Part shown: one piece after another, positions 9,353 through 58,279 of the stretch
Layout: each line of letters opens with the position of its first letter
Position numbering within the stretch: position 1 is the stretch's first letter
Source: Atribacterota bacterium
GTDB taxonomy: Bacteria > Atribacterota > Phoenicimicrobiia > Phoenicimicrobiales > Stramentimicrobiaceae
Length of the DNA stretch: 64,000 bases
Direction: 5' to 3'
Assembly (NCBI GenBank): GCA_040767965.1
Contig: JAXGNR010000004.1
Location: forward strand, 736,001 to 800,000
Notes under the pieces: generated by a model
The model's database searches: none
Seen by the model: the letters and a program-made list of their open reading frames with translations, nothing else
What the model was told of the DNA's origin: nothing
Program-made: the position numbers and the translations under genes

Positions 9353-9441
9353 GCCGAAGTGGCGAAATTGGTAGACGCACTGGACTCAAAATCCAGCGGG
9401 CCTCACAGCTCATGTCGGTTCGACTCCGACCTTCGGCACCA
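9353..9441 (+). tRNA. tRNA-Leu(CAA)
   Basis: GCCGAAG/CTTCGGC acceptor stem, anticodon arm CTGGA-CTCAAAA-TCCAG, long variable arm, GGTTCGACTCC T-arm, encoded CCA. Confidence 0.96.
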
Positions 9442-23634: not shown

Positions 23635-25317
23635 TTATTTTTTTGTTTTTTTTATTAACTCTTCTGCTATTTTATTTCCATTAAAAAAGAAATATGGAAA
23701 TTTTCTGAATTGAGAAACTTTATCATTTTCAATAAATTTTTTACTATCTTCAATTTTTCCCGATATGTATTTTTCATAATCTGACAGGATTTCTGTTATA
23801 TTTTTGTTTATTTTATTAATTTTTTTAGAAACAAGATACTTCTGGTTACTTGGAGTGTTTTGGATTATTTTTATTAGATCATGTTTTTCCTTAATTAATT
23901 TGTTTATCATCTGATTCTTTTCTTCTGGAAGATTAGCTTCATCGATTATCTTTTCCGGATTATATTGTATTGTCCTTTTTTTCTTTTCTAAAACAGAAAT
24001 AGCTTCTATTGTTGTTGTTTTAACAGGCAAATCAAGTAAAAATGTAGCGGAAATAGTCAAAAACCTGGGAGGGATTATTTTAAAATATTTTTGCATTATA
24101 TCATCTGTAATACAGTCATATTTTGATCCTCCGATACCATGAATAAAAAGATCTGCTCCAAAAAGACGGTTAAATAAAGTTAAAATAATTGCTCTTGGGT
24201 ATAGGATGTAATTATTTTCTTGAATGTGTTTCTTGAATTTTGTAAAAACTGTATCTTCTTTTCCATTTATTATAGAAAACAAGGCAATGTTATCACCATA
24301 AATATCTTCAATAAATATTGACCCATTTTGTTTTTTGATAAATATCTTTTTTCTTTCCGAACGTTCGCCTCTTTTCCATATCCAAAATGGTGTTTCTATT
24401 CTATTGTTATCTGTGGAAAGATCTGGTAAAGGGTTGGCTGCATTTTTAATCTTGTGAGCTAGTCTATATTCATGAAGGCTTTTATTATAGATATATGAGA
24501 AATTTTCTATATTAAAAACTATTTCTAAAAAGAATAAAAGTAAAGAGTCATGATTTGAAATAAAAGAGTATGGTAAATCATAATACTGGGGATTTATAGT
24601 GCTTTCATAAAGTCTCCTGCAGGTTGTCATAAATATACCTAACTGATTCATTGCAGGAGTTGATTTGCATATTTTGTAAGCATTTTTAAAACAATTTGAA
24701 AATACATTATAGTTTTGATAAGTATTATCTGGCAGAAACTGAATACTTTTATTAATTTTTTTTAAAACATTTAATAGCATTTCTTTTGATGGTATTTGTA
24801 ATTCCTGTAAAGGAATTTCATTATTATTGATACTTAAAATATGTTTTCTTAAAGAAATATCACTGGAGTTTTTTTGTATATTATTATCAATTTCAGTATT
24901 AATAGCTGGATAGTATATTGAAACAGGATTAACAACATCATTATCTAAGTTTAAGTTTATCCCAAAAATATTTTTTGAGCTATTTTCTTTTATTATTTGA
25001 TTTAAGAGAATATTTTTTATCCATACTCCGGGATGATAAAATTCAGGCTGATGCCCTGTCATTATTATACAATCAACAGATTTTTCAGAAAAAGGGAGCC
25101 TTGAAGGAGTAATTATATCTGTGAAAGATAATGTTTTTTTTATCAAATCAATACGATATCTATTTCTAAGGCTATTAAAACTCTTATGAAATATTTTTAT
25201 GTTGTTATTATTTAATATTCTCATATTTTCTTCAATAATTTTAGAGATACAAGAATAATCAGGATGAAGTATTATTTCTTTGTTTTTAATAGGTACTTTC
25301 AGAGATCTGCTTTTCAT
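23635..25317 (-). CDS. Divergent BshC-like (putative ligase) protein
   Basis: IMTGHQP (cf. BshC TGQQ), LDND, PRAII...FIHGIGGSKYD, coiled-coil C-terminus, BshC-like length, abuts the bshB1-like gene. Confidence 0.55.
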   Translation of the reverse strand: MKSRSLKVPIKNKEIILHPDYSCISKIIEENMRILNNNNIKIFHKSFNSLRNRYRIDLIKKTLSFTDIITPSRLPFSEKSVDCIIMTGHQPEFYHPGVWIKNILLNQIIKENSSKNIFGINLNLDNDVVNPVSIYYPAINTEIDNNIQKNSSDISLRKHILSINNNEIPLQELQIPSKEMLLNVLKKINKSIQFLPDNTYQNYNVFSNCFKNAYKICKSTPAMNQLGIFMTTCRRLYESTINPQYYDLPYSFISNHDSLLLFFLEIVFNIENFSYIYNKSLHEYRLAHKIKNAANPLPDLSTDNNRIETPFWIWKRGERSERKKIFIKKQNGSIFIEDIYGDNIALFSIINGKEDTVFTKFKKHIQENNYILYPRAIILTLFNRLFGADLFIHGIGGSKYDCITDDIMQKYFKIIPPRFLTISATFLLDLPVKTTTIEAISVLEKKKRTIQYNPEKIIDEANLPEEKNQMINKLIKEKHDLIKIIQNTPSNQKYLVSKKINKINKNITEILSDYEKYISGKIEDSKKFIENDKVSQFRKFPYFFFNGNKIAEELIKKTKK

Positions 25318-26007
25318 TTATACTAAGTCCTGAATATTTTTTATTCCAACACATTCCTTTGATATAAAGGCTTCTCCATATTCCCTGCCTATTAATCCAC
25401 CCCAATAAGAATTTTTTCTTTTTACCCAGGCAATACCAGCATGTTGGTTTAAGCTTGATCCAAATTGAGATTCATAACATTCTAAAGCAGTTAATTTCTT
25501 CTCCATTTCATCAGATATGTTATATATAAAATTAGGTGAAATATTTAATCTGATATGAGAGACTAAATAATAATATATTTTAGGTACGTAATAAGGATCT
25601 CCTTCCATATTTGTTTTTGTAAGTTTACCGTAAAACCTGGCAGCATCGCATAATTTAGAAGCTGCAATATGGTCTGGATGGGCATCAATCCAATAAGGAG
25701 CAAATATGATTTCTGGTCTATTTATTCTAAATTGTTCTGCTAATTTTTGACGAGAAGGAATATCGTCTGTTAAATATCGATTTTTTAAAGTAATATTAAT
25801 TCTATTTTTTACTCCAAGTATTTGTTTTGCTTTTTCAGATTCATTTTTTCTTTTTTCAACAGTTCCACGCGGAGTTGGTTCTCCATCTGTTAAATCCAGA
25901 ATTGTTACATCTATATTTTGTTTTACCATTGATATTATTGTTCCACCCATTCCTATTTCCACATCATCAGGATGAGCTCCTATAGCCATTGCTTTCAATA
26001 CAATCAA
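25318..26007 (-). CDS. bshB1: PIG-L/LmbE family GlcNAc deacetylase, BshB1-like
   Basis: AHPDDVEIGMGG, DLTDGE, HPDH, YESQF. Confidence 0.8.
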   Translation of the reverse strand: MIVLKAMAIGAHPDDVEIGMGGTIISMVKQNIDVTILDLTDGEPTPRGTVEKRKNESEKAKQILGVKNRINITLKNRYLTDDIPSRQKLAEQFRINRPEIIFAPYWIDAHPDHIAASKLCDAARFYGKLTKTNMEGDPYYVPKIYYYLVSHIRLNISPNFIYNISDEMEKKLTALECYESQFGSSLNQHAGIAWVKRKNSYWGGLIGREYGEAFISKECVGIKNIQDLV

Positions 26008-26720
26008 TCTCCTTTCGGATTATTTTTATATAATATGAAAACCTTTTCAAGGTATTATTCAGGATAACTCCAAATGTTCGTTTCTCATCTGTATAAATTA
26101 GCTCAATTGGCATTTCCTTAAGAATTAATTTTTGTTTATGTGCCTGTAAAATAAGTTGCAGCGGTAAACCAAAACCTTTTTCTGTTAATTTTAATTTTTT
26201 TAACGCCGATACACTATATATTTTAAAACCACAAAAAGAATCAGTTAAATCATAATCGGTAATTGCAGATAGTATTTTTGTTATTCTATGATTAACCTTT
26301 TGTCTGTTTGGAGGAGGTGTTGATAACATCATTTTCGGATCAAGATATCTTGATCCTGATAAAATATCTATATTATTTTTTTTAATCGTATTCACAAAGT
26401 GAGGGATATTTTCCGGCTCATGCTGTCCATCACCGTCAATAGTTATTATATATTTATAATTATTTTTTATTGAAAAATTAAAACCATTAATTAACGTTTT
26501 ACCATAACCTTCATTTGTGTGATGATTTATATAAAATAGGTTACCATTATTCTTTTCAGAAATATTTTTTATTATAGAATCGCTTGAATCTGTTGAACCA
26601 TCATTAATAATAAGAATATCGCTTTTTGAATATTTTCTAATATCATCTATAACTTTTTCAATATTTTTTCTTCGTTATATACCGGATAAATATTAAAATA
26701 TCTTGCTTATGTTTTTTCAT
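25967..26720 (-). CDS. Glycosyltransferase family 2 (DPM synthase-like), frameshifted near the N-terminus
   Basis: ATG at 26720; shifted frames give VYNEE, INDGSTD, NEGYG, TIDGDGQHEP, SGSRY, TDSFCGFK; indels in the first ~25 codons. Confidence 0.8.
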
Positions 26721-26841
26721 TTTTATTTAATTAATTTTTTAAATTTTTAATAAAGGATTATCTTTATTTTAAAGATAATCCTTTATTTTTGTTATATGTT
26801 ATATATTATACTCTATTTAATTTTTTTACATTTAACAATAA

Positions 26842-28718
26842 TCAGCATTCAATCCATTCCAGATCCAGCTCTGCCAGTTTGGCTTTTGGTTGGAACTCCA
26901 TTTTCATCCCAGCCCTGTATGGCATAGTAGGTTTGAAGGGCTCAATTGAATTCTTCTTTATCAATAGCCTTGTCTTTTAAAGGGCCGCTGGTAAAGGCCT
27001 TGAAGATACGATCCGGTAATTTATCATCTTCGGTAAATCCTTCTCTGTTGTTGAAGCAGCGGGCCATGGTGTTAGCCTTTTTCTCCCACTTTAATCAGTT
27101 CAAATAAGCTGGTATTCCAGCCGGTTACTGCTTCTACTAAAGAAACCAGGTTTTTAAGGCTTTGAAAACCTATAGGAACTGAAGTAAAATTACACATTCC
27201 AATACTGTTATATAAATCTAATATTTTCTGAGTTGTAGACAAAAAGCCAATTTTTTTATCACTTAAATCTAATGGTTCAATTGGTTCCAATAAACCCAAA
27301 GCTGAAACCTCTTCAAGAGGAAAACCATAGTCAGTAAACATAACATCGTGTGGTATTTCACAATGATCTGCTCCGGTGGGAGAGATGGCATACGGATTCC
27401 TAAGCCAACTTTTCCTCTTGGTTCATGCATGGGAAATTCCTGTCCCTTGACATGCATGGCATACTGTTCTGCCCCTTTTCGAAATTTGTGCAGCTTTGGC
27501 TACGCCTTTGCTATAGGTGGCTCCTATTCCATCTAAGTTGTAGATCTTTTCGATCATCTTTTAACATGGCATCAGCATTGCCGAATTTCAGCTGGATGCC
27601 GTCGGTGTCTTTTTCGGTGATGATGCCTTCTTCGAAGCATTCCATGGCAAAGGCGATGGTGGTGCCGGTGGAGATGGTATCAAGTCCGTATTTGTTGCAC
27701 AGTTCATTACCTTTGGGCAATAGCCTCAAGATCATCTATTCCTAAGAGAGAGCCCAGGAACCGATGGTTTCATATTCAGGTCCTCCGTAATAGGGATCTA
27801 CATCATAGCGGCCTTCCACTTTGACTTCTCTTTGCAGCGGACCGGACAGGCATAGCAGTGGCCGCGCGGACTAAGATGGTCTCAGCCATGGTAGGTCCCG
27901 AGATGGCAGAGGCACCTTCAAACTGGCCTTCCCTGAAGTTGCGGGTAGGCAGGATGCCGGCTGCGTTTAAGGATTCTACTCCTCTGGGCGGTACCGTAAT
28001 CGTGCATGCCCTGGGAGACTTGTTTCCAATTGAGGGGCAAACTCCTTGGTAATCTCTTTGATCTTGGCCTATCATGATAGGGGTTCTTGCCTGAGGGCGT
28101 ACGGCAATGGCCCGCAGTTTCTTGGAGCCCATGACTGCTCCCAGGCCTACTTCAGGCCGTTGTAATGTTTTGATTCATTGCTTATGCAGGCATAGTTGAT
28201 CAGCTTTTCTCCGGTGGCCGCGATCTGGGCTATTCTGATCTTATCATCTCCCAATTCTTCACGGATCATACGCTTCGGCTTCTCCGGTGGTCTTACCGGT
28301 TATGGATGCGGCATCACGTAATTCTATCTTGTCATCCTTGATCCACAGGTAGACGGGCTGGGGGAGAGATGCCTTTGATGATGATGGCATCATAGCCGGC
28401 CCATTTGAACTCAGGGCCCACCAGCCTCCGGCTTCTGCTTCTCCGAAGCCTCCGGTTAAGGGGGATTTGGCTGCTACGGTGTAACGGCTGGCTCCCGGGA
28501 CGGTGGTACCGGTAATGGGACTGCAGGCAAAGACTAAGATGTTCTCAGGGCCTAAGGGACCATGCCCTTGGGCATCTCTGAAAGTGGCAGGGAACTGGCC
28601 ATGCTCTCCCTCCCAGGTACTTGCGGTAGATGAGCTCTGGTAAGACTTCTGTTTTGACTTCACCTTTGGAGAGGTCTACTCTGATGATCTTGCCATTATA
28701 GGGTTTCTTTTCTGACAT
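26842..28718 (-). pseudogene. Aldehyde:ferredoxin oxidoreductase (W/Mo), multiply frameshifted in this sequence
   Basis: Fragments: PYNGKIIRVDLS, AKSPLTGGFGEAEAGG, MGSKKLRAIAV, GPEYET, CNKYGLDTISTG, HVKGQEFPMHEPRGK, GWDENGVP; total length fits ~625 aa; the breaks may be consensus errors. Confidence 0.85.
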
Positions 28719-28902
28719 AATATATGCCTCCTTTTGAAATTTAATTAGAACTAGGGTTTAGGGTAAAAACTATTACTTTAATTATAATTACAAATAGATT
28801 TAATTGCCCTTTTACAATAAAAGGCAAAAATATTAGAAACATAATAAATAGAAATTTATTATGTTTCTAATTAATTTAAAACTATATAAACATTTAGTTA
28901 AT

Positions 28903-28931
28903 ATTATACAAAATCAATAATTTTTTTTCAA
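28903..28931 (-). promoter_or_regulatory. Putative sigma70 promoter of the AOR gene
   Basis: TTGAAA, 17 bp spacer, TATAAT on the minus strand. Confidence 0.55.
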
Positions 28932-29042
28932 TTTTTAATTTTTATATACTTTCATTTCTTATTATTTTATTTTTTATAATTTTTCAATATATTTTAAATA
29001 ATAAAAAATTACCTGCTGCTAACCTAGCAGACACAATCTTTA

Positions 29043-29117
29043 TTATGCTCATCCGCATCCAGCTAAAAAAAGAGATAAAGCTACTATTAATGAAATAAAT
29101 ATAAATAATTTTGCCAA
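29043..29117 (-). CDS. Candidate micro-lipoprotein MAKLFIFISLIVALSLFLAGCG(U)A, possible selenopeptide
   Basis: SD GGAGGTG 7 nt before TTG; basic n-region, hydrophobic h-region, lipobox LAGC; TGA at 29049-29051 then GCA TAA TAA; hairpin directly downstream. Confidence 0.55.
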
Positions 29118-29153
29118 AATATTTCACCTCCATTTTAAATATAATTTATCTTT

Positions 29154-29175
29154 TTATCTGACAATTATCTGACAA
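29154..29175. promoter_or_regulatory. Tandem 11-bp direct repeat, putative operator
   Basis: TTATCTGACAA TTATCTGACAA, about 40 bp upstream of the micro-ORF start. Confidence 0.55.
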
Positions 29176-29271
29176 AAGTTTAATAAATTGTATCTTATTA
29201 GCTTTATTAAAACAAATTAATAATTTCAATTATTTAATTAAACTATTGAATTAGGTAAAAAGATTTATATT

Positions 29272-30069
29272 TTAATTCAACAATTTTTCAACAATGTAAG
29301 GATCATTAATGGTAAGACCATCAATCCGCCATTTTATTAATTTTCTTAGAAATGAATCTTCAATATTTTCCCCTACCCCCCAAAGGCGAACTTTAAAGCT
29401 GTTTTCATGAAGCATTTTAATAATTTCTTCATCAGTATTGCATGCTGGAGGGCAGACAACATTCACATTAAACTTAGTTGCATCCTTAATTAGGTTATTG
29501 ATATTGTTATAAATATTGACTGGTGCTCCATCGTTGATCAAAGAAAAATAGTCCTTTTTTGTTGAAAATTCAATTAAAGCAGAGGTTTCTATATTTTTTT
29601 CAATTTTTTTCACTTTTTCTAAAACATCCCAGTAAAAAGCTGAAACATTAACCCTATTTATCATATTTCTTTTCTTTATCATATTAACTGCTTTTTCTGT
29701 TATTTCAGGAAAATAATTACTATCCTTAATTTCAAGAACTAATTTAATATCTTTGTATTTTTCTAACAAATCAAATACTTCTGATAGAGTAGGTATTCTT
29801 TCATCTTTATATTTTGGACCAAACCACAAACCAGCATCTAATTTTTTTAAATCTGTTAAATTAAAATCAGAAACAATGCCTTTACCATTAGTTGTTCTGT
29901 CTATTTTCTTATCATGTATTACCACCAAATGGCCATCTTTTGACAATCTGATATCACATTCTATGTATTTTATTCCCGTATTGATTGCTTTTATAAAAGC
30001 AGCTAATGTATTTTCTGGACAATAAGCTGAAGCTCCTCTATGAGCTATATTCATGAAATCTGCAGGCAT
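29272..30069 (-). CDS. Glycerophosphodiester phosphodiesterase
   Basis: AHRGAS, PENTL, IECD, VIHD, RIPTL, LEIK. Confidence 0.92.
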   Translation of the reverse strand: MPADFMNIAHRGASAYCPENTLAAFIKAINTGIKYIECDIRLSKDGHLVVIHDKKIDRTTNGKGIVSDFNLTDLKKLDAGLWFGPKYKDERIPTLSEVFDLLEKYKDIKLVLEIKDSNYFPEITEKAVNMIKKRNMINRVNVSAFYWDVLEKVKKIEKNIETSALIEFSTKKDYFSLINDGAPVNIYNNINNLIKDATKFNVNVVCPPACNTDEEIIKMLHENSFKVRLWGVGENIEDSFLRKLIKWRIDGLTINDPYIVEKLLN

Positions 30070-30117
30070 TTTTAACTCCCTTTCTTCTACTCATTATTAA
30101 ATATTATCTGTTTTAGC

Positions 30118-31026
30118 TTATTTTTCTGGTTTAAGATATTTTTTTTCTATTTTTGCTATATAAGTGTAAAGAGGGTCAACAAATTGAGTACATCTGGCTT
30201 GCATTACTTGTCCTAACAAAAGAAATGCTTCAGTATCAGTAAAACCAAAGCTGCCAACCATCCAGTTAATTAATTCCTGCACTGCTATTCGAAAAGCATC
30301 TTCGGCTGGTCTTGCACATCCTATACTTATAATAGATTCAGGAGTTTCTATTCTTGGCCAAATCATCTCCTGAGGTTTTGGAATTAAATCAACCTGGATT
30401 GTCAAAATAGATCTGGTTTCTATTCCACCAGCACAGCATATCTCACCATCTCCCATGATAGCATGCACATCACCAACATGAAGCAAGGCTCCATCAACAT
30501 AAACTGGTAAAAAAATAGTATTTCCTATTGTGACTTCTTGTATATCAAGATTTCCTCCATATTTCCCATTATCGCTATTTGGATATGACCCAATATCCGG
30601 AGCAGTGCCAACAAAACCAATCATTGGCTGTATTGGTATCTTAAGATTTTTACTCCAATAAACATGATCATTTTCAATTTTAACAGTTTTAGAAATAACT
30701 CCTCCCCAGTCTTTTTTTCTGATCCAGTCCGGGAAGGGTGTACATCTGGGAATAAGTGCAGTATAACCAATATTTGATAATTCAATATTTTTTATCTTTA
30801 TAGCTAAAACATCTTTGGCAGTTGCTTCTTCAATATAAATACATCCGCTGGTTGGATTTCTCCATGTTGCCTTTTCTGGTGACCATTGATCATTTTCATT
30901 TTGCAGCCAATCACCTGTATTCAACTCAGTTTCTATTTGAAATACCTCTCCAGGTTTTATCCTTAGTGTAACAGGATTAAATCTGCTTATTTCATTATAC
31001 AAAATATCTCGTGTAGCTATTTTCAT
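30118..31026 (-). CDS. Acetamidase/formamidase family protein
   Basis: PMIGFVGTAP, GGNLD, LHVGDVHAIMGDGE. Confidence 0.88.
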   Translation of the reverse strand: MKIATRDILYNEISRFNPVTLRIKPGEVFQIETELNTGDWLQNENDQWSPEKATWRNPTSGCIYIEEATAKDVLAIKIKNIELSNIGYTALIPRCTPFPDWIRKKDWGGVISKTVKIENDHVYWSKNLKIPIQPMIGFVGTAPDIGSYPNSDNGKYGGNLDIQEVTIGNTIFLPVYVDGALLHVGDVHAIMGDGEICCAGGIETRSILTIQVDLIPKPQEMIWPRIETPESIISIGCARPAEDAFRIAVQELINWMVGSFGFTDTEAFLLLGQVMQARCTQFVDPLYTYIAKIEKKYLKPEK

Positions 31027-31086
31027 TTCATCCCTCTTTTACTATATTTTAAATATCAAAAGTATTATTTTAAAAATTAGATGTTT

Positions 31087-32094
31087 TTAAGAAGTCATTC
31101 TCTCAACAACCTTATTAGCAAGGTCAAATCTATTTTCATTCACATATAAAGGAACACAGCATCCAGGGCCAAGTATTAACCTTTTGTCTTCAACTTGGTC
31201 AAAAGCATTATTAAAATGTTCCAATAATTCTTCTTCATTTGCTTCATTTAATATTTTATATTCATCAACTCCACCAATCAGAAGTTTGTCAGTTTTTTTT
31301 CTTCCCTCTTTTAATGATATGTCCACCAATCTATCATGCCAATTAAGCGCTTGTACCGGGTATTTTTCTAAAATATCAAACATTGGTGCATTTCCATGCA
31401 TATGAAGTATGTTAAACCAGGTATTATTTTTAAAAGCATTAATTATTTCTAAATCATAAGGTTTCCCAAATTTTTCGTATTCCTCAACGTTCATTTTATC
31501 ATAATTTGCCAATTGAGTAGCAAAAAACACCCCATCTATTCCAAATTTAATCAATTCTTTAACATAACTTACAGAAGTCTCTGTAATTACTTCTAACCCT
31601 CTTTTAAGATATTCGGGATTAGTTCTCATATGAATTAACATTTTATCATTACTCATTTTCATAGCATGTAATAATGAGTTAAACACAGTGATTACTACTG
31701 GCACCTCTCCTTTAAATCTATTTACCACTTCTTTTACTACTTCTAAAGAATCACCAATTGAATTTTGCTTTATTGGCAACACATTAATTTTTGTCCAGTC
31801 TTGTGCTGTTTTTATGGGATAGTCAGTTATTATTCCAACTTTTGAACAGGTATCAGGCCATTGACAATCTCTTTCTGGCCATTTTACTTGAGTCCCCCAG
31901 TCTTGGCTAAAATGCAGTCCATGATATGTAATCTTAACGAAATCCCAATTAAATCTTTCCTGGAATTGTATTATTTTTTTTATTAAGTTTTGTGGATTTT
32001 CATCATAAGGAGGAAAATGTTTCCAAAGGTTAATAGCTGGTTTTTTCAGGGTTCCTCCTGACAATAATGTTTCTATTCTTTTCACATGATTCAT
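31087..32094 (-). CDS. Uroporphyrinogen decarboxylase (URO-D/MtaA) superfamily protein
   Basis: LWKHFP, DFVKI, GIDGVFFATQ, KPYDL, ILHMHG, LNWHD, LGPGCCVP. Confidence 0.82.
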   Translation of the reverse strand: MNHVKRIETLLSGGTLKKPAINLWKHFPPYDENPQNLIKKIIQFQERFNWDFVKITYHGLHFSQDWGTQVKWPERDCQWPDTCSKVGIITDYPIKTAQDWTKINVLPIKQNSIGDSLEVVKEVVNRFKGEVPVVITVFNSLLHAMKMSNDKMLIHMRTNPEYLKRGLEVITETSVSYVKELIKFGIDGVFFATQLANYDKMNVEEYEKFGKPYDLEIINAFKNNTWFNILHMHGNAPMFDILEKYPVQALNWHDRLVDISLKEGRKKTDKLLIGGVDEYKILNEANEEELLEHFNNAFDQVEDKRLILGPGCCVPLYVNENRFDLANKVVERMTS

Positions 32095-32233
32095 TTGTTT
32101 AATCCTCCATTTTTACAATCAAAACTGGTAAATTAATTGTATTATAATGTAATATTTATAGCAAGAAAGCATTTCCATGCAAAATCTTTTATTGCTTAAT
32201 ATCTAATGTTCATAGTATCCATGCTAAATAAGC

Positions 32234-32878
32234 TTAATATCCAAGACTTTCACCTACCAAAATAACTGTAATATCAGACAAATTTGGTTTTTTATGAAAA
32301 ACCACGGAAATATTACACATTCTTTCAGGTGAGTCACAATCAGTGCACTGGCCAATCAATGCACAAGGCGTTTTTCTGCTTAACCTTATTCCATTTAGCG
32401 GGGCGGTAATATTTCTAATTCTGGCAAAAGCTTCTTCTAAAGTATCCACAAGTTTATTTGCACCAGCAATAATAATCGTTTTTTGTGGGCCGAAAGACAT
32501 AGCTGCAATACGGTTCCCTGATCCATCAATATTTACTAATTCTCCATTCAAGGTAATTGCATTACTACTGGTAAGATAAACATCACATGTTAAAGATTTT
32601 TTTCTATTGTTTAACTTTTCTTCTGTGGTTAAATCTTTCTCCCAATGTGAGAATACAGTATTGCCTTGTTTATTTATAATCTCCAGTAATCCAATTTCCC
32701 TTATTGATATTGAACCACCTATTCCAACTGTTGCATTTTTGGGTATGAAAGATATTGCTTTGCTAACAGCCTCCTCTTTTGTAGCATAGAAGAGAGCATT
32801 AAAATTGTTTGCTTTTAAGGCATTAACAGCAACTTTTGATCTTTTAGCGTAAAACTCCTTTAAAAGTAATTCATCCAT
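32234..32878 (-). CDS. LUD-domain (lactate utilization) protein
   Basis: GGSIS, SSNAITLNGELVNIDGSGNR, CALIGQCTDCDSPERMC. Confidence 0.88.
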   Translation of the reverse strand: MDELLLKEFYAKRSKVAVNALKANNFNALFYATKEEAVSKAISFIPKNATVGIGGSISIREIGLLEIINKQGNTVFSHWEKDLTTEEKLNNRKKSLTCDVYLTSSNAITLNGELVNIDGSGNRIAAMSFGPQKTIIIAGANKLVDTLEEAFARIRNITAPLNGIRLSRKTPCALIGQCTDCDSPERMCNISVVFHKKPNLSDITVILVGESLGY

Positions 32879-57925: not shown

Positions 57926-58279
57926 TGGTAGAGGCGGCGAGATTCGAACTCGCGTCCAGAGAACCATCAATAAAAAATACTACGAGTGTAGTCTATGTTC
58001 TATTGTTTCATATTACCTAACTCCCATAGACTGGATTTAAATAATACTAGCTTCATAGTTTCTCTGAATCATTTGAAGCAAAATGAATCAGATAGCCTGT
58101 TTTTTGTTACACCCGCAATAAACTTACAAGCGAAAGTTCATTGCAGACGAGCAGCTATTAAGCTGCTAAAGCCAATTCGTTATCGTTGGCAATTAATGTT
58201 TTTCCCTAAGTTTAACGAGGATAAGGACCTCGACTCGCATTCTTTACCCCTGTTTTCCCTGTCGAAACCTATCGCCCCC
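57926..58279 (-). ncRNA. ssrA: tmRNA; tag peptide (A)ANDNELALAA
   Basis: 5' GGGGGCGATAGGTTTCGAC; 3' GGACGCGAGTTCGAATCTCGCCGCCTCTACCA; G3-U70 pair; tag ORF 58190-58158 GCC AAC GAT AAC GAA TTG GCT TTA GCA GCT TAA. Confidence 0.96.

Follow-up and report, generated by a model that had tools for sequence, protein, structure and literature searches.

A TTG-started lipobox micro-ORF ending in TGA ahead of a SECIS-like hairpin in an Atribacterota genome probably carries a plain stop codon

The window analysed here comprises 64,000 nucleotides of contig JAXGNR010000004.1 (forward-strand positions 736,001 to 800,000, assembly GCA_040767965.1) from an Atribacterota bacterium. On its minus strand, a micro-ORF and a hairpin are situated in the 3′ region of a GDPD gene, and the features of the locus are, in window coordinates:

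26705–32233, no strand assigned: lineage-specific 5.5-kb block holding the micro-ORF, the hairpin, the GDPD gene and the AOR pseudogene.
29272–30069, minus strand: intact GDPD gene, which closes a co-directional run of long genes (URO-D-like, formamidase-like, GDPD).
29125–29131, minus strand: Shine-Dalgarno-like (SD) GGAGGTG, read directly, with a TTG start 7 nt downstream.
29049–29117, minus strand: 22-codon ORF MAKLFIFISLIVALSLFLAGCG, running from TTG to a TGA stop and resembling a lipoprotein signal peptide (lipobox LAGC).
29040–29048, minus strand: GCA TAA TAA in frame after the TGA, i.e. one sense codon and tandem stops.
29014–29033, minus strand: hairpin UG[U]CUGCUA-GGU-UAGCAGCA, terminator-like and SECIS-like, from folding.
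29003–29008, minus strand: U6 run, after CAGGUAA.
28903–28931, minus strand: strong promoter-like TTGAAA-17-TATAAT (11/12), between the hairpin and the AOR pseudogene.
26817–28796, minus strand: decayed third paralogue of the aldehyde:ferredoxin oxidoreductase (AOR) gene, a pseudogene with at least eight frame changes.

Between the GDPD stop and the micro-ORF start, the minus strand displayed no further terminator-like site and no promoter-like site scoring at least 9/12. On the downstream side, the first-pass annotation had placed an AOR gene; AOR-family sequence does lie there, its fragments matching AFOR_N and AFOR_C, but it is a pseudogene and the promoter-like site stands in between. Compared with the intact copies on contigs C9 and C6, it retains 89–90% DNA identity with 24–25 gap openings, and these gap openings are accompanied by ∼10% substitutions, so sequencing error was rejected as the cause of the frame breaks. 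A foreign origin of this copy (45–58% GC) was likewise rejected, because the intact paralogues have 48–49% GC at that same identity. The GT2 gene is broken at its 5′-end as well, where two frameshifts seemed, by eye on the translation, to fall in homopolymer runs, so sequencing error may explain these. Elsewhere in the genome, an Hsp20 gene with a nonsense TGA was observed.

The 5.5-kb block is missing between the orthologous LUD-domain and GT2 genes at the collinear locus of a relative (G012). A mobile-element origin of the block was considered and rejected, as plasmids and phages matched a short GDPD motif only. Only distant relatives of the GDPD protein were found, in 5 of 21 genomes of the family (35–44% identity), where the matches are probably paralogues, at five loci in species-representative genomes (33–36%) and at three loci in metagenome contigs (31–34%); no lipoprotein gene lies downstream of GDPD at the metagenome-contig and family loci. 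Upstream, the unit TTGTCAGATAA stands twice in tandem; this arrangement has no second copy in the genome, where lone units number six, and a role as a shared regulator site was set aside.

The micro-ORF itself is present as first described, with GGAGGTG 7 nt before the TTG (29117) and an ending of TGA-GCA-TAA-TAA on the minus strand. Its sense codons run from 29117 to 29052, starting with TTG at 29117–29115, and the TGA occupies 29051–29049; GCA follows at 29048–29046 and TAA TAA at 29045–29040. Past the UGA the frame thus continues for one codon only, too short to count as a continuation, and inspection of ORFs and translations from 29048 to 28720 found no frame open for long. TGA ends 230 of the 1,513 ORFs of at least 200 aa, and so is a normal stop in this genome. 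The surroundings have 18–19% GC. GGAGGTG occurs in 175 copies genome-wide, 55 of them with a start codon 4–10 nt downstream, and since 24 of these 55 lead into ORFs shorter than 30 aa, the motif alone is not diagnostic of a gene.

The proposal of a lipoprotein signal peptide with LAGC and almost no mature part was borne out by rule-based criteria, namely K/R in the n-region, an uncharged h-region, [LVI][ASTVI][GAS]C and Cys at 15–35. The peptide divides into the n-region MAK, the uncharged h-region LFIFISLIVALSLF and the lipobox LAGC with Cys at position 21, a single residue (Gly) separating this Cys from the TGA; it passes both a PROSITE-like rule and a stricter signal-peptide rule. SD and signal peptide bear no visible damage, in contrast to the adjoining AOR pseudogene. 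Lgt and LspA are encoded in the genome (LGT 233.3 bits; Peptidase_A8 123.5 bits). All curated lipid-attachment models scored the micro-ORF under their cut-offs: LptM_cons 18.4 versus 27.3, SS_mature_LptM 19.3 versus 27.7, LPAM_1 10.5 versus 20 and LPAM_MltD 14 versus 24.8. Among micro-ORFs with at most five mature residues, the strict signal-peptide and lipobox rule plus an SD selected two in the genome and none in all five shuffled genomes, an excess more in keeping with the remains of a genuine gene start than with noise alone; dropping the SD gave five versus 0–2 in shuffles, and the looser PROSITE-like rule gave 58 in the genome.

The hairpin was found as the first-pass annotation drew it, with a bulged U and a loop starting 24 nt after the UGA. 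Its core is a 6-bp stem, CUGCUA (29030–29025) with UAGCAG (29021–29016), closed by the loop GGU (29024–29022); it begins 18 nt past the TGA and can be extended by a U-A and a G-C pair around the bulged U (29033–29014), and the MFE fold adds outer pairing of an A-tract with a U-tract. The hairpin alone yields −5.1 kcal/mol, or −6.3 kcal/mol with the two extra pairs, and the fold of the region has no exceptional stability (z = −1.04, equalled or surpassed by 29 of 200 shuffles). The U6 run lies 7 nt from the core stem; in an alternative pairing, whose stem of 8 pairs includes two G-U, the distance is 1 nt. It is this alternative, with a loop of 8 and then ATTTTTTATT, that the terminator scan called, as the sole terminator-like site within 28600–29400, where shuffles led us to expect 0.2; over 20 kb, terminator-like matches were not enriched (9 versus 10.6 ± 3.3 in shuffles). 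An Rfam scan of 28000–30000 (E ≤ 10) returned three chance-level matches, none at the micro-ORF locus.

The four selenocysteine genes named in the first-pass annotation are all present: selC, selA, selB and selD form one cluster on contig C9 (66.5, 521.5, 339.4 and 346.2 bits, respectively, selD with one in-frame TGA), and the organism therefore decodes selenocysteine (Sec). Sec use is widespread in the order, one TGA being found in selD in 35 of 40 among the matches listed. Four genuine selenoprotein genes were found in the genome, encoding SelD, PrxU, a HesB-like protein and an FmdB zinc-ribbon protein. Their SECIS elements, a set of four gene families confounded by coding constraints, start 16–19 nt from the UGA with a stem of 6–8 bp, a loop start at 23–27 nt and the loops GGU, UGGAU, CGUGA and GUA. 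The candidate falls within this range (distance 18 nt, 6 bp, loop GGU, loop start 24), and GGU is the selD SECIS loop in 24 of 28 distinct sequences of relatives. In the zinc-ribbon gene, Sec is placed 9 residues from the C-terminus, and the true stop codon, 8 codons after the UGA, is inside a SECIS loop closed by U-A whose 3′ arm lies in the UTR, which establishes that a SECIS extending beyond the stop codon is used in this lineage. The codon context is similar too (GGA-UGA-GCA in the candidate, GGC-UGA-GCA in selD); homology of the candidate UGA and hairpin to the selD SECIS was nonetheless rejected, as a by-eye comparison displayed only TGAGCA in common. Among further SECIS sources sought, molybdopterin enzymes gave three matches, none with a TGA, and GrdB gave none, as in the control genomes. 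A codon log-odds screen for selenoproteins was abandoned as too noisy, its best-scoring cases being neighbouring same-frame genes and antisense frames, and a dicodon, best-of-six-frames screen took its place.

How much such a geometry tells was gauged from its chance rate. The published bacterial SECIS consensus, as excerpted from PMC13188914, comprises a loop of 3–9 nt, a stem of 4–16 bp, G in the first two loop positions, a distance of 16–37 nt from the UGA and an MFE ≤ −7.5, and the candidate fits this excerpted form (loop GGU, 6–8 bp, 24 nt, region MFE −9.5 to −12.3) as well as the narrower geometry of the four lineage elements. The former agreement says little, as geometry alone admits 3,031 of 6,000 random TGA triplets, and 1,536 of 6,000 still qualify once the region MFE is added. 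The lineage descriptor, composed after the candidate had been seen, matched a single ordinary stop out of 1,862 in ORFs of at least 150 aa and 0 of 307 TGA stops; over all TGA triplets, shuffled genomes gave 27–50 matches. Combining an SD-led ORF, a TGA and the lineage-type geometry yielded five cases in the genome, i.e. the four validated selenoprotein genes plus the candidate, which had been chosen for these very features so that their apparent weight is inflated. Four shuffled genomes gave 1, 2, 0 and 1 such cases, so one unexplained case is just what chance would deliver (0–2, about 1 per shuffled genome).

The conserved lipobox, TGA and hairpin sought in related genomes were not found, neither by DNA homology to the locus in the 40 relatives searched nor as the 27-nt lipobox-TGA core, which was absent from all 51 further genomes of the order when up to 3 mismatches were allowed. 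A TGA/Cys counterpart of the candidate position was absent from these 51 genomes as well. They hold 89 sites of the form L-[AS]-[GA]-C-x-TGA, of which none passes the SECIS descriptor and one has a signal-peptide-like ORF upstream. The own genome contains no micro-ORF paralogue and no repeat copies, viral contigs gave 0 matches to the core, and a selenoprotein of the lipid-anchored micro-peptide kind was not met in the literature searched. The compared relatives are of the same order, none of the same genus, so this absence of homologues is weak evidence against selection.

On balance, we favour as the probable reading that the TGA is a plain stop, the hairpin a terminator and the 22-codon frame an orphan or relic. 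The micro-ORF TGA would then be an ordinary stop codon, and the hairpin with its U-run would form an intrinsic terminator closing the URO-D-like/formamidase-like/GDPD transcript, transcription presumably stopping there. The frame may be all that remains of a lipoprotein gene, namely its 5′-end with SD and signal peptide, the rest having disappeared during assembly of the block. Alternatively, it may be a stray frame, or a young one, in AT-rich DNA. We counted for this reading that the hairpin and U6 come at the end of a co-directional gene run with TTGAAA-17-TATAAT next, that a single codon follows the TGA, that homologue and analogue were absent from the genomes compared, and that the block is lineage-specific beside a decayed AOR. 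Counted against it were a hairpin whose spacing, stem length and loop agree with the genuine SECIS elements of the lineage, the rarity of the lineage geometry at ordinary stops (1/1,862; TGA 0/307), the weakness of the hairpin as a terminator (−5.1 to −6.3 kcal/mol, U-run 7 nt from the most stable stem), the missing enrichment of terminator-like matches over 20 kb, and an undamaged SD and signal peptide for which the searches found no parent lipoprotein gene. Such a parent would formerly have existed if the frame is a relic; it is a gene we infer, there being no paralogue in the genome and no lipoprotein gene after the GDPD homologues of the metagenome-contig and family loci. The frame appears to be free of selection, and it probably has neither selenocysteine nor a dedicated function. 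The first-pass annotation had listed a truncated remnant and a mere terminator as alternatives, and both are graded here as more likely than its selenopeptide.

A real small gene that uses no selenocysteine is possible, though we regard it as rather unlikely. It would produce a 22-residue peptide stopping at the TGA, either a hydrophobic membrane peptide or, if processed by Lgt and LspA, a lipo-dipeptide and released signal peptide, with the hairpin as its own terminator. Single hydrophobic helices of about 20–30 residues are common among the small proteins of bacteria, and lipoprotein signal peptides are the source from which enterococcal pheromones are cleaved. A strong SD at ideal spacing in an 18–19% GC stretch, undamaged n-, h- and lipobox regions in a genome that has both processing enzymes, a terminator-like hairpin directly behind, and two strict-rule, SD-led cases versus none in five shuffles all accord with such a gene. 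It is weakened by the lack of any homologue or analogue in the 51 genomes, by an upstream region in which no promoter-like site of its own was found, by its residence in a lineage-specific, partly decayed block, by the scores under threshold in curated lipoprotein models, and by the 24 of 55 GGAGGTG sites leading to ORFs below 30 aa, which make the SD no proof of a gene.

Far less probable is the selenopeptide originally proposed, in which SelB would bind the hairpin as a SECIS lying wholly in the 3′ UTR and the UGA would partly be read as Sec, with TAA one codon on. Equally improbable is the product envisaged after Lgt and LspA action, a membrane diacylglyceryl-Cys-Gly-Sec-Ala, with the SECIS doubling as terminator. 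The complete Sec machinery in an order where Sec use is widespread, a candidate within the narrow geometry of the four genuine SECIS elements, a zinc-ribbon SECIS of the same genome running beyond its stop codon, true selenoprotein genes making up 4 of 5 SD-led ORFs with this geometry, and the selD-like GGA-UGA-GCA context speak for recoding. Set against these are about one false case expected per genome, a TGA/Cys pair and an analogue both absent from the 51 relatives, a consensus that half of random TGA triplets pass on geometry (3,031/6,000), a hairpin of merely −5.1 to −6.3 kcal/mol with a U-run behind, and features that were the reason for picking the case and so weigh less than they seem. 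A lipidated Cys is moreover unable to form a selenenylsulfide, and the literature searched yielded no such selenoprotein. No positive support was found for readthrough into a lipid-anchored selenopeptide, and the missing homologues, the chance rate and the partly decayed, lineage-specific block tell against it.

Most doubtful of all, to the point of being hardly credible, is a SelB-binding, SECIS-like regulator that would act behind a leader-type ORF as an attenuator responding to selenium, or as a decoy, with no recoded product. This reading would accord with the geometry of genuine SECIS elements, with a position between a short ORF and a further gene in the company of a U-run, and with the E. 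coli selAB leader, where a SECIS-like element binds SelB and controls translation, but is contradicted by the strong promoter-like site separating the hairpin from the downstream gene, by that gene being a pseudogene, by the lack of conservation and by no link having been found between the AOR-family enzymes of this genome and selenium.

Were selenocysteine inserted after all, Sec recoding would work on a micro-ORF with its SECIS wholly outside the coding region, and cells could expose a bare selenol by way of a lipid anchor, a redox-active molecule of a new type for the envelope. In size the peptide would undercut every known selenoprotein, and it would be the first to be anchored by a lipid. 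With the plain stop and terminator as the probable reading, the locus serves rather as a caution, since a Sec-decoding AT-rich genome yields about one chance combination of an SD-led ORF, a TGA and a convincing SECIS-like hairpin, and the published bacterial consensus is satisfied on geometry by about half of TGA triplets. The analysis also delivered a sharp lineage-specific SECIS descriptor, which recovers all four true selenoprotein genes of the genome. These include the gene for the FmdB-type zinc-ribbon protein, in which Sec lies close to the C-terminus and the 3′ UTR holds half of the SECIS.

Among known systems, small hydrophobic membrane peptides and type I toxin-like sORFs, as that class is generally understood, resemble the micro-ORF in having ∼20 residues with a single hydrophobic helix and in being intergenic and SD-led with a terminator directly behind; unlike them, it has no antisense RNA promoter above chance (promoter-like sites 6 versus 6.4 in shuffles) and no family members or repeat copies in the genome. 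Lipoprotein precursors, the substrates of Lgt and LspA, share its positively charged n-region (here MAK), uncharged h-region and lipobox (here L-A-G-C with Cys 21), the very small LptM-type precursors being the nearest, with a similar GCG ending and the best sub-threshold model matches, but its mature part is one residue (three with readthrough), it has no homologue in the genomes searched, and all curated models score it below threshold. Bacterial SECIS elements, represented by those of selD, prxU, the hesB-like and the FmdB-type genes, are alike in the 18-nt spacing, the 6-bp stem (8 with the bulged U) and the GGU loop; the candidate differs from them in having one codon after the UGA, so that the whole element lies in the 3′ UTR, in a U-run behind the hairpin, in the absence of a Cys or Sec homologue from the genomes compared and in its comparatively low stability (−5.1 to −6.3 versus −6.4 to −9.6 kcal/mol). 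Compared with intrinsic terminators, the hairpin has a short, weak stem, and 7 nt separate the U-run from the most stable pairing, but it is alike in its GC-containing stem within AT-rich intergenic DNA, in the A-rich tract before and the U6 after it, and in its location at the end of a co-directional gene run.

On the minus strand 3′ of the GDPD gene, every sequence element named in the first-pass annotation was found, i.e. a Shine-Dalgarno (SD) sequence, a TTG start, a 22-codon frame (the micro-ORF), a TGA and a hairpin, which that annotation had interpreted as a lipid-anchored selenopeptide with the UGA decoded as selenocysteine (Sec) and the hairpin acting as a SECIS element.

Features at and around the micro-ORF (window positions)
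26705-32233: 5.5-kb block between a LUD-domain gene and GT2, holding the URO-D-like, formamidase-like and GDPD genes, the micro-ORF and the AOR pseudogene
29154-29175, minus: tandem direct repeat, TTGTCAGATAA twice, ~23 nt upstream of the micro-ORF SD
29131-29125, minus: SD GGAGGTG, read from the sequence
29117-29115, minus: TTG start, 7 nt 3′ of GGAGGTG
29117-29052, minus: micro-ORF frame MAKLFIFISLIVALSLFLAGCG, read from the sequence
29051-29049, minus: TGA, then GCA, TAA, TAA
29033-29014, minus: extended stem, two more pairs around a bulged U
29030-29025, minus: stem 5′ arm CUGCUA, starting 18 nt after the TGA
29024-29022, minus: loop GGU
29021-29016, minus: stem 3′ arm UAGCAG
29008-29003, minus: U6 run, preceded by CAGGUAA, 3′ of the hairpin
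28931-28903: promoter-like TTGAAA-17-TATAAT (11/12, consensus scan), after the hairpin and ahead of the next gene
26817-28796, minus: AOR pseudogene, third paralogue, at least 8 frame changes; AFOR_N, AFOR_C

The proposed lipoprotein signal with its lipobox also held up, as the peptide satisfies both a PROSITE-like rule and a stricter one (K/R n-region, uncharged h-region, L-x-[GAS]-C), and genes for Lgt and LspA were found in the genome. In this genome (33% GC), 58 start/ORF combinations with five or fewer mature residues passed a loose lipobox rule and 5 passed the strict one, an SD being present in 5 and 2 of them, respectively; the strict rule was passed 0–2 times in each of five block-shuffled genomes, and never with an SD. 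All matches of the peptide to curated lipid-attachment or lipoprotein models were below cut-off, the best being the LptM signal-plus-mature-start model (19.3 bits versus a cut-off of 27.7), and no paralogue of the peptide or its DNA was detected in its own genome. The paired TTGTCAGATAA repeat is unique in the genome, where the single unit occurs six times. A mature part after the signal is absent, and 28720-29048 contains no open frame. The micro-ORF looks like a genuine or once-genuine translation start with a lipoprotein-type signal.

The most economical account, and probably the correct one, combines an ordinary TGA stop, a hairpin/U-run terminator and an orphaned lipoprotein 5′ end or stray frame. 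Since a consensus scan detected neither a promoter-like nor a terminator-like site from the GDPD stop to the micro-ORF, the transcript of the URO-D-like, formamidase-like and GDPD genes would run on through the micro-ORF; it would end at the hairpin and U-run, the sole terminator-like site in 28600-29400 by the same type of scan (0.2 in shuffles). The TGA would serve as an ordinary stop, as it does for 230 of the 1,513 ORFs of at least 200 aa in the genome, and the micro-ORF would be either a lipoprotein gene's orphaned 5′ end or a stray frame within a block that is mosaic and partly decayed. In the minimum-energy fold, the A-rich tract 5′ of the stem pairs with the U-run; the fold of the 76-nt stretch is unexceptional (z = −1.04, 29/200 shuffles at least as stable), and Rfam yielded no match at the locus.

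The AOR gene placed downstream by the first-pass annotation is not a working one, as its frame changes at least eight times and its pieces match AFOR_N and AFOR_C separately. Compared with the intact copies on contigs C9 and C6, it shares 89–90% DNA identity over ~1.95 kb with 24–25 gap openings, and its N-terminal 40 codons and 75-nt leader are nearly unchanged; it is a decaying third paralogue. The other AOR-family genes of the genome are intact, and its high GC is normal for such genes (48–49% in the intact copies). The duplicated AOR segment ends at 28796 and 28797-29271 is unique in the genome, which places the micro-ORF outside the duplication. The relative G012 has the LUD-domain gene and an intact GT2, collinear with window 32234-32878 and 25313-26704, separated by 17 nt; PIG-L comes after GT2, and the collinear DNA alignment blocks leave a 28-nt gap. 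The 5.5-kb block is therefore specific to this lineage, this one comparator fitting either its insertion in this genome or its loss from G012 by deletion. At the block junction, two frameshifts break GT2 at its 5′ end (about 26640-26720), seemingly in homopolymer runs as judged by eye. The block was not found on known plasmids or phages, and the collections searched held no closer GDPD locus. Two perfect 18-bp AT-rich palindromes with 3–4-nt loops but different sequences (26749-26787 and 28832-28871) flank the AOR pseudogene and could be terminators or operators. The window also encodes a tmRNA (57926-58279, minus; tag peptide ANDNELALAA) and tRNAs at 9353, 37584, 59961 and 60187.

A real small hydrophobic or lipo-peptide stopping at the TGA is a tentative and rather unlikely alternative, for which the intact, well-formed SD and signal peptide speak; GGAGGTG plus a start codon is no proof of a gene, because 24 of the 55 such sites in the genome lead to ORFs of <30 aa. 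The species is the sole member of its genus among the genomes compared. Searching 28940-29290 against 40 relatives returned only AT-rich chance matches, and the 27-nt lipobox-TGA core (≤3 mismatches) occurred in 0/51 other genomes of the order, so no TGA/Cys pair is available for the candidate. The analogous pattern L-[AS]-[GA]-C-x-TGA was present at 89 sites in 40 of these 51 genomes, of which one has a signal-peptide-like ORF upstream and none passed a narrow SECIS descriptor in scripted scoring. This lack of homologues and analogues in the 51 genomes counts against a gene family and has little bearing on a species-specific gene.

Sec readthrough of the UGA, the original interpretation, is very improbable. 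The organism does use Sec, which removes the first of the refuting conditions set in the first-pass annotation, a genome without selABCD: a compact selenium locus (contig C9, 19554-25524) carries a HesB-like selenoprotein gene (minus), then selC (66.5 bits), selA, selB and selD in a row, and selD has its own in-frame TGA and is itself a selenoprotein gene. Screening by dicodons for TGA codons flanked 5′ and 3′ by coding signal picked up selD and two further genes, and Pfam/NCBIfam models confirmed PrxU (NF040737, 320 bits versus cut-off 270) and the HesB-like selenoprotein (TIGR01911, 68.4 versus 66.35) across their TGAs. Sec is used generally across the order, as exactly one TGA was present in 35 of the 40 selD matches listed and in 13/13 PrxU. 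An in-frame TGA in an Hsp20 gene (contig C4, 99909-100349, plus, locus L046, outside the window) replaces a Trp invariant in 7/7 extracted orthologues (GGIW[AS]P), has no SECIS-like hairpin by descriptor and is a nonsense lesion; an intact paralogue lies at C10:82208-82633.

The published bacterial SECIS consensus, taken from the text of PMC13188914, is nearly useless for discrimination in this genome, since 3,031 of 6,000 random TGA triplets passed its geometry and 1,536 also its region-energy test. The narrow descriptor, derived from real SECIS elements (stem starting 16–20 nt after the codon, ≥6 bp, ≥3 GC pairs, ≤1 G-U; loop of 3–5 nt containing GG or GU), matched 1/1,862 ordinary stops of ORFs ≥150 aa (TAA 1/1,216, TGA 0/307, TAG 0/339) and 65/81,753 genomic TGA triplets, versus 27–50 in shuffled genomes. 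Adding an in-frame TGA behind an SD-led start of ≥8 codons left the candidate alongside four true selenoprotein genes, five cases in all, and four shuffled genomes gave 1, 2, 0 and 1, so the single unexplained case matches chance expectation; as the descriptor was written after the candidate had been seen, and the case had been chosen for these same features, its apparent fit is inflated. Although every structural test applied was passed and a gene of the same genome provides a precedent, with a SECIS reaching past its ORF, conservation is lacking, about one such case per genome is expected by chance, one codon only follows the UGA, and the product would be unprecedented. Full-text literature joining 'selenocysteine' and 'lipobox' gave nothing relevant by title, and in the main text of PMC13188914 the words 'lipoprotein', 'signal peptide', 'penultimate', 'C-terminus' and 'small selenoprotein' are absent; small or C-terminal Sec proteins may be listed in supplementary tables of selenoprotein catalogues. 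That the SECIS-like fold is instead a SelB-binding regulatory hairpin is the least credible reading of all.

The precedent, which is the strongest point for the selenopeptide idea, is a fourth selenoprotein gene found by the SECIS descriptor, encoding an FmdB-family zinc-ribbon protein of 86 residues (contig C8, 97708-97968, plus; locus L120:709-969; TIGR02605, 45 bits), a family known among selenoproteins with a UxxU motif according to PMC13188914. Its Sec lies 9 residues from the C-terminus, with the tail reading ...APT-U-GAGNACSL or a close variant in six genomes of the family and aligning with ...CPT-C-PGGTCSLG in others, which makes a Sec/Cys pair. Since its true stop TAA sits inside the SECIS loop (GUA) and the 3′ arm is wholly in the 3′ UTR, where sequence varies and pairing is kept, this lineage does decode Sec close to the C-terminus with a SECIS extending past the ORF.

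SECIS elements of the genome and the candidate hairpin (UGA-to-stem distance, stem, loop)
selD: 19 nt, 8 bp, GGU
hesB-like: 19 nt, 6 bp, UGGAU
prxU: 17 nt, 6 bp, CGUGA
zinc-ribbon: 16 nt, 7 bp, GUA
candidate: 18 nt, 6 bp, GGU

The likeness of the hairpin to a SECIS was upheld, as its spacing, stem and loop match the organism's four real elements, with the loop starting 24 nt after the UGA versus 23–27 nt in those four. Among relatives, 39 selD/prxU elements (37 distinct) were collected from 43 loci, four prxU loci falling outside the motif; selD elements showed 17–19 nt, 8–10 bp and a GGN loop (GGU in 24/28), and prxU elements 17 nt and 6–7 bp, with either CGUGA or GUG as the loop. The loop-closing pair is C-G in 37/37 of the relatives' elements but A-U in the candidate, which is no bar because the zinc-ribbon SECIS closes with U-A. 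The energy of the candidate hairpin alone, −5.1 to −6.3 kcal/mol, is similar to that of prxU (−6.4) and weaker than that of selD (−9.6).
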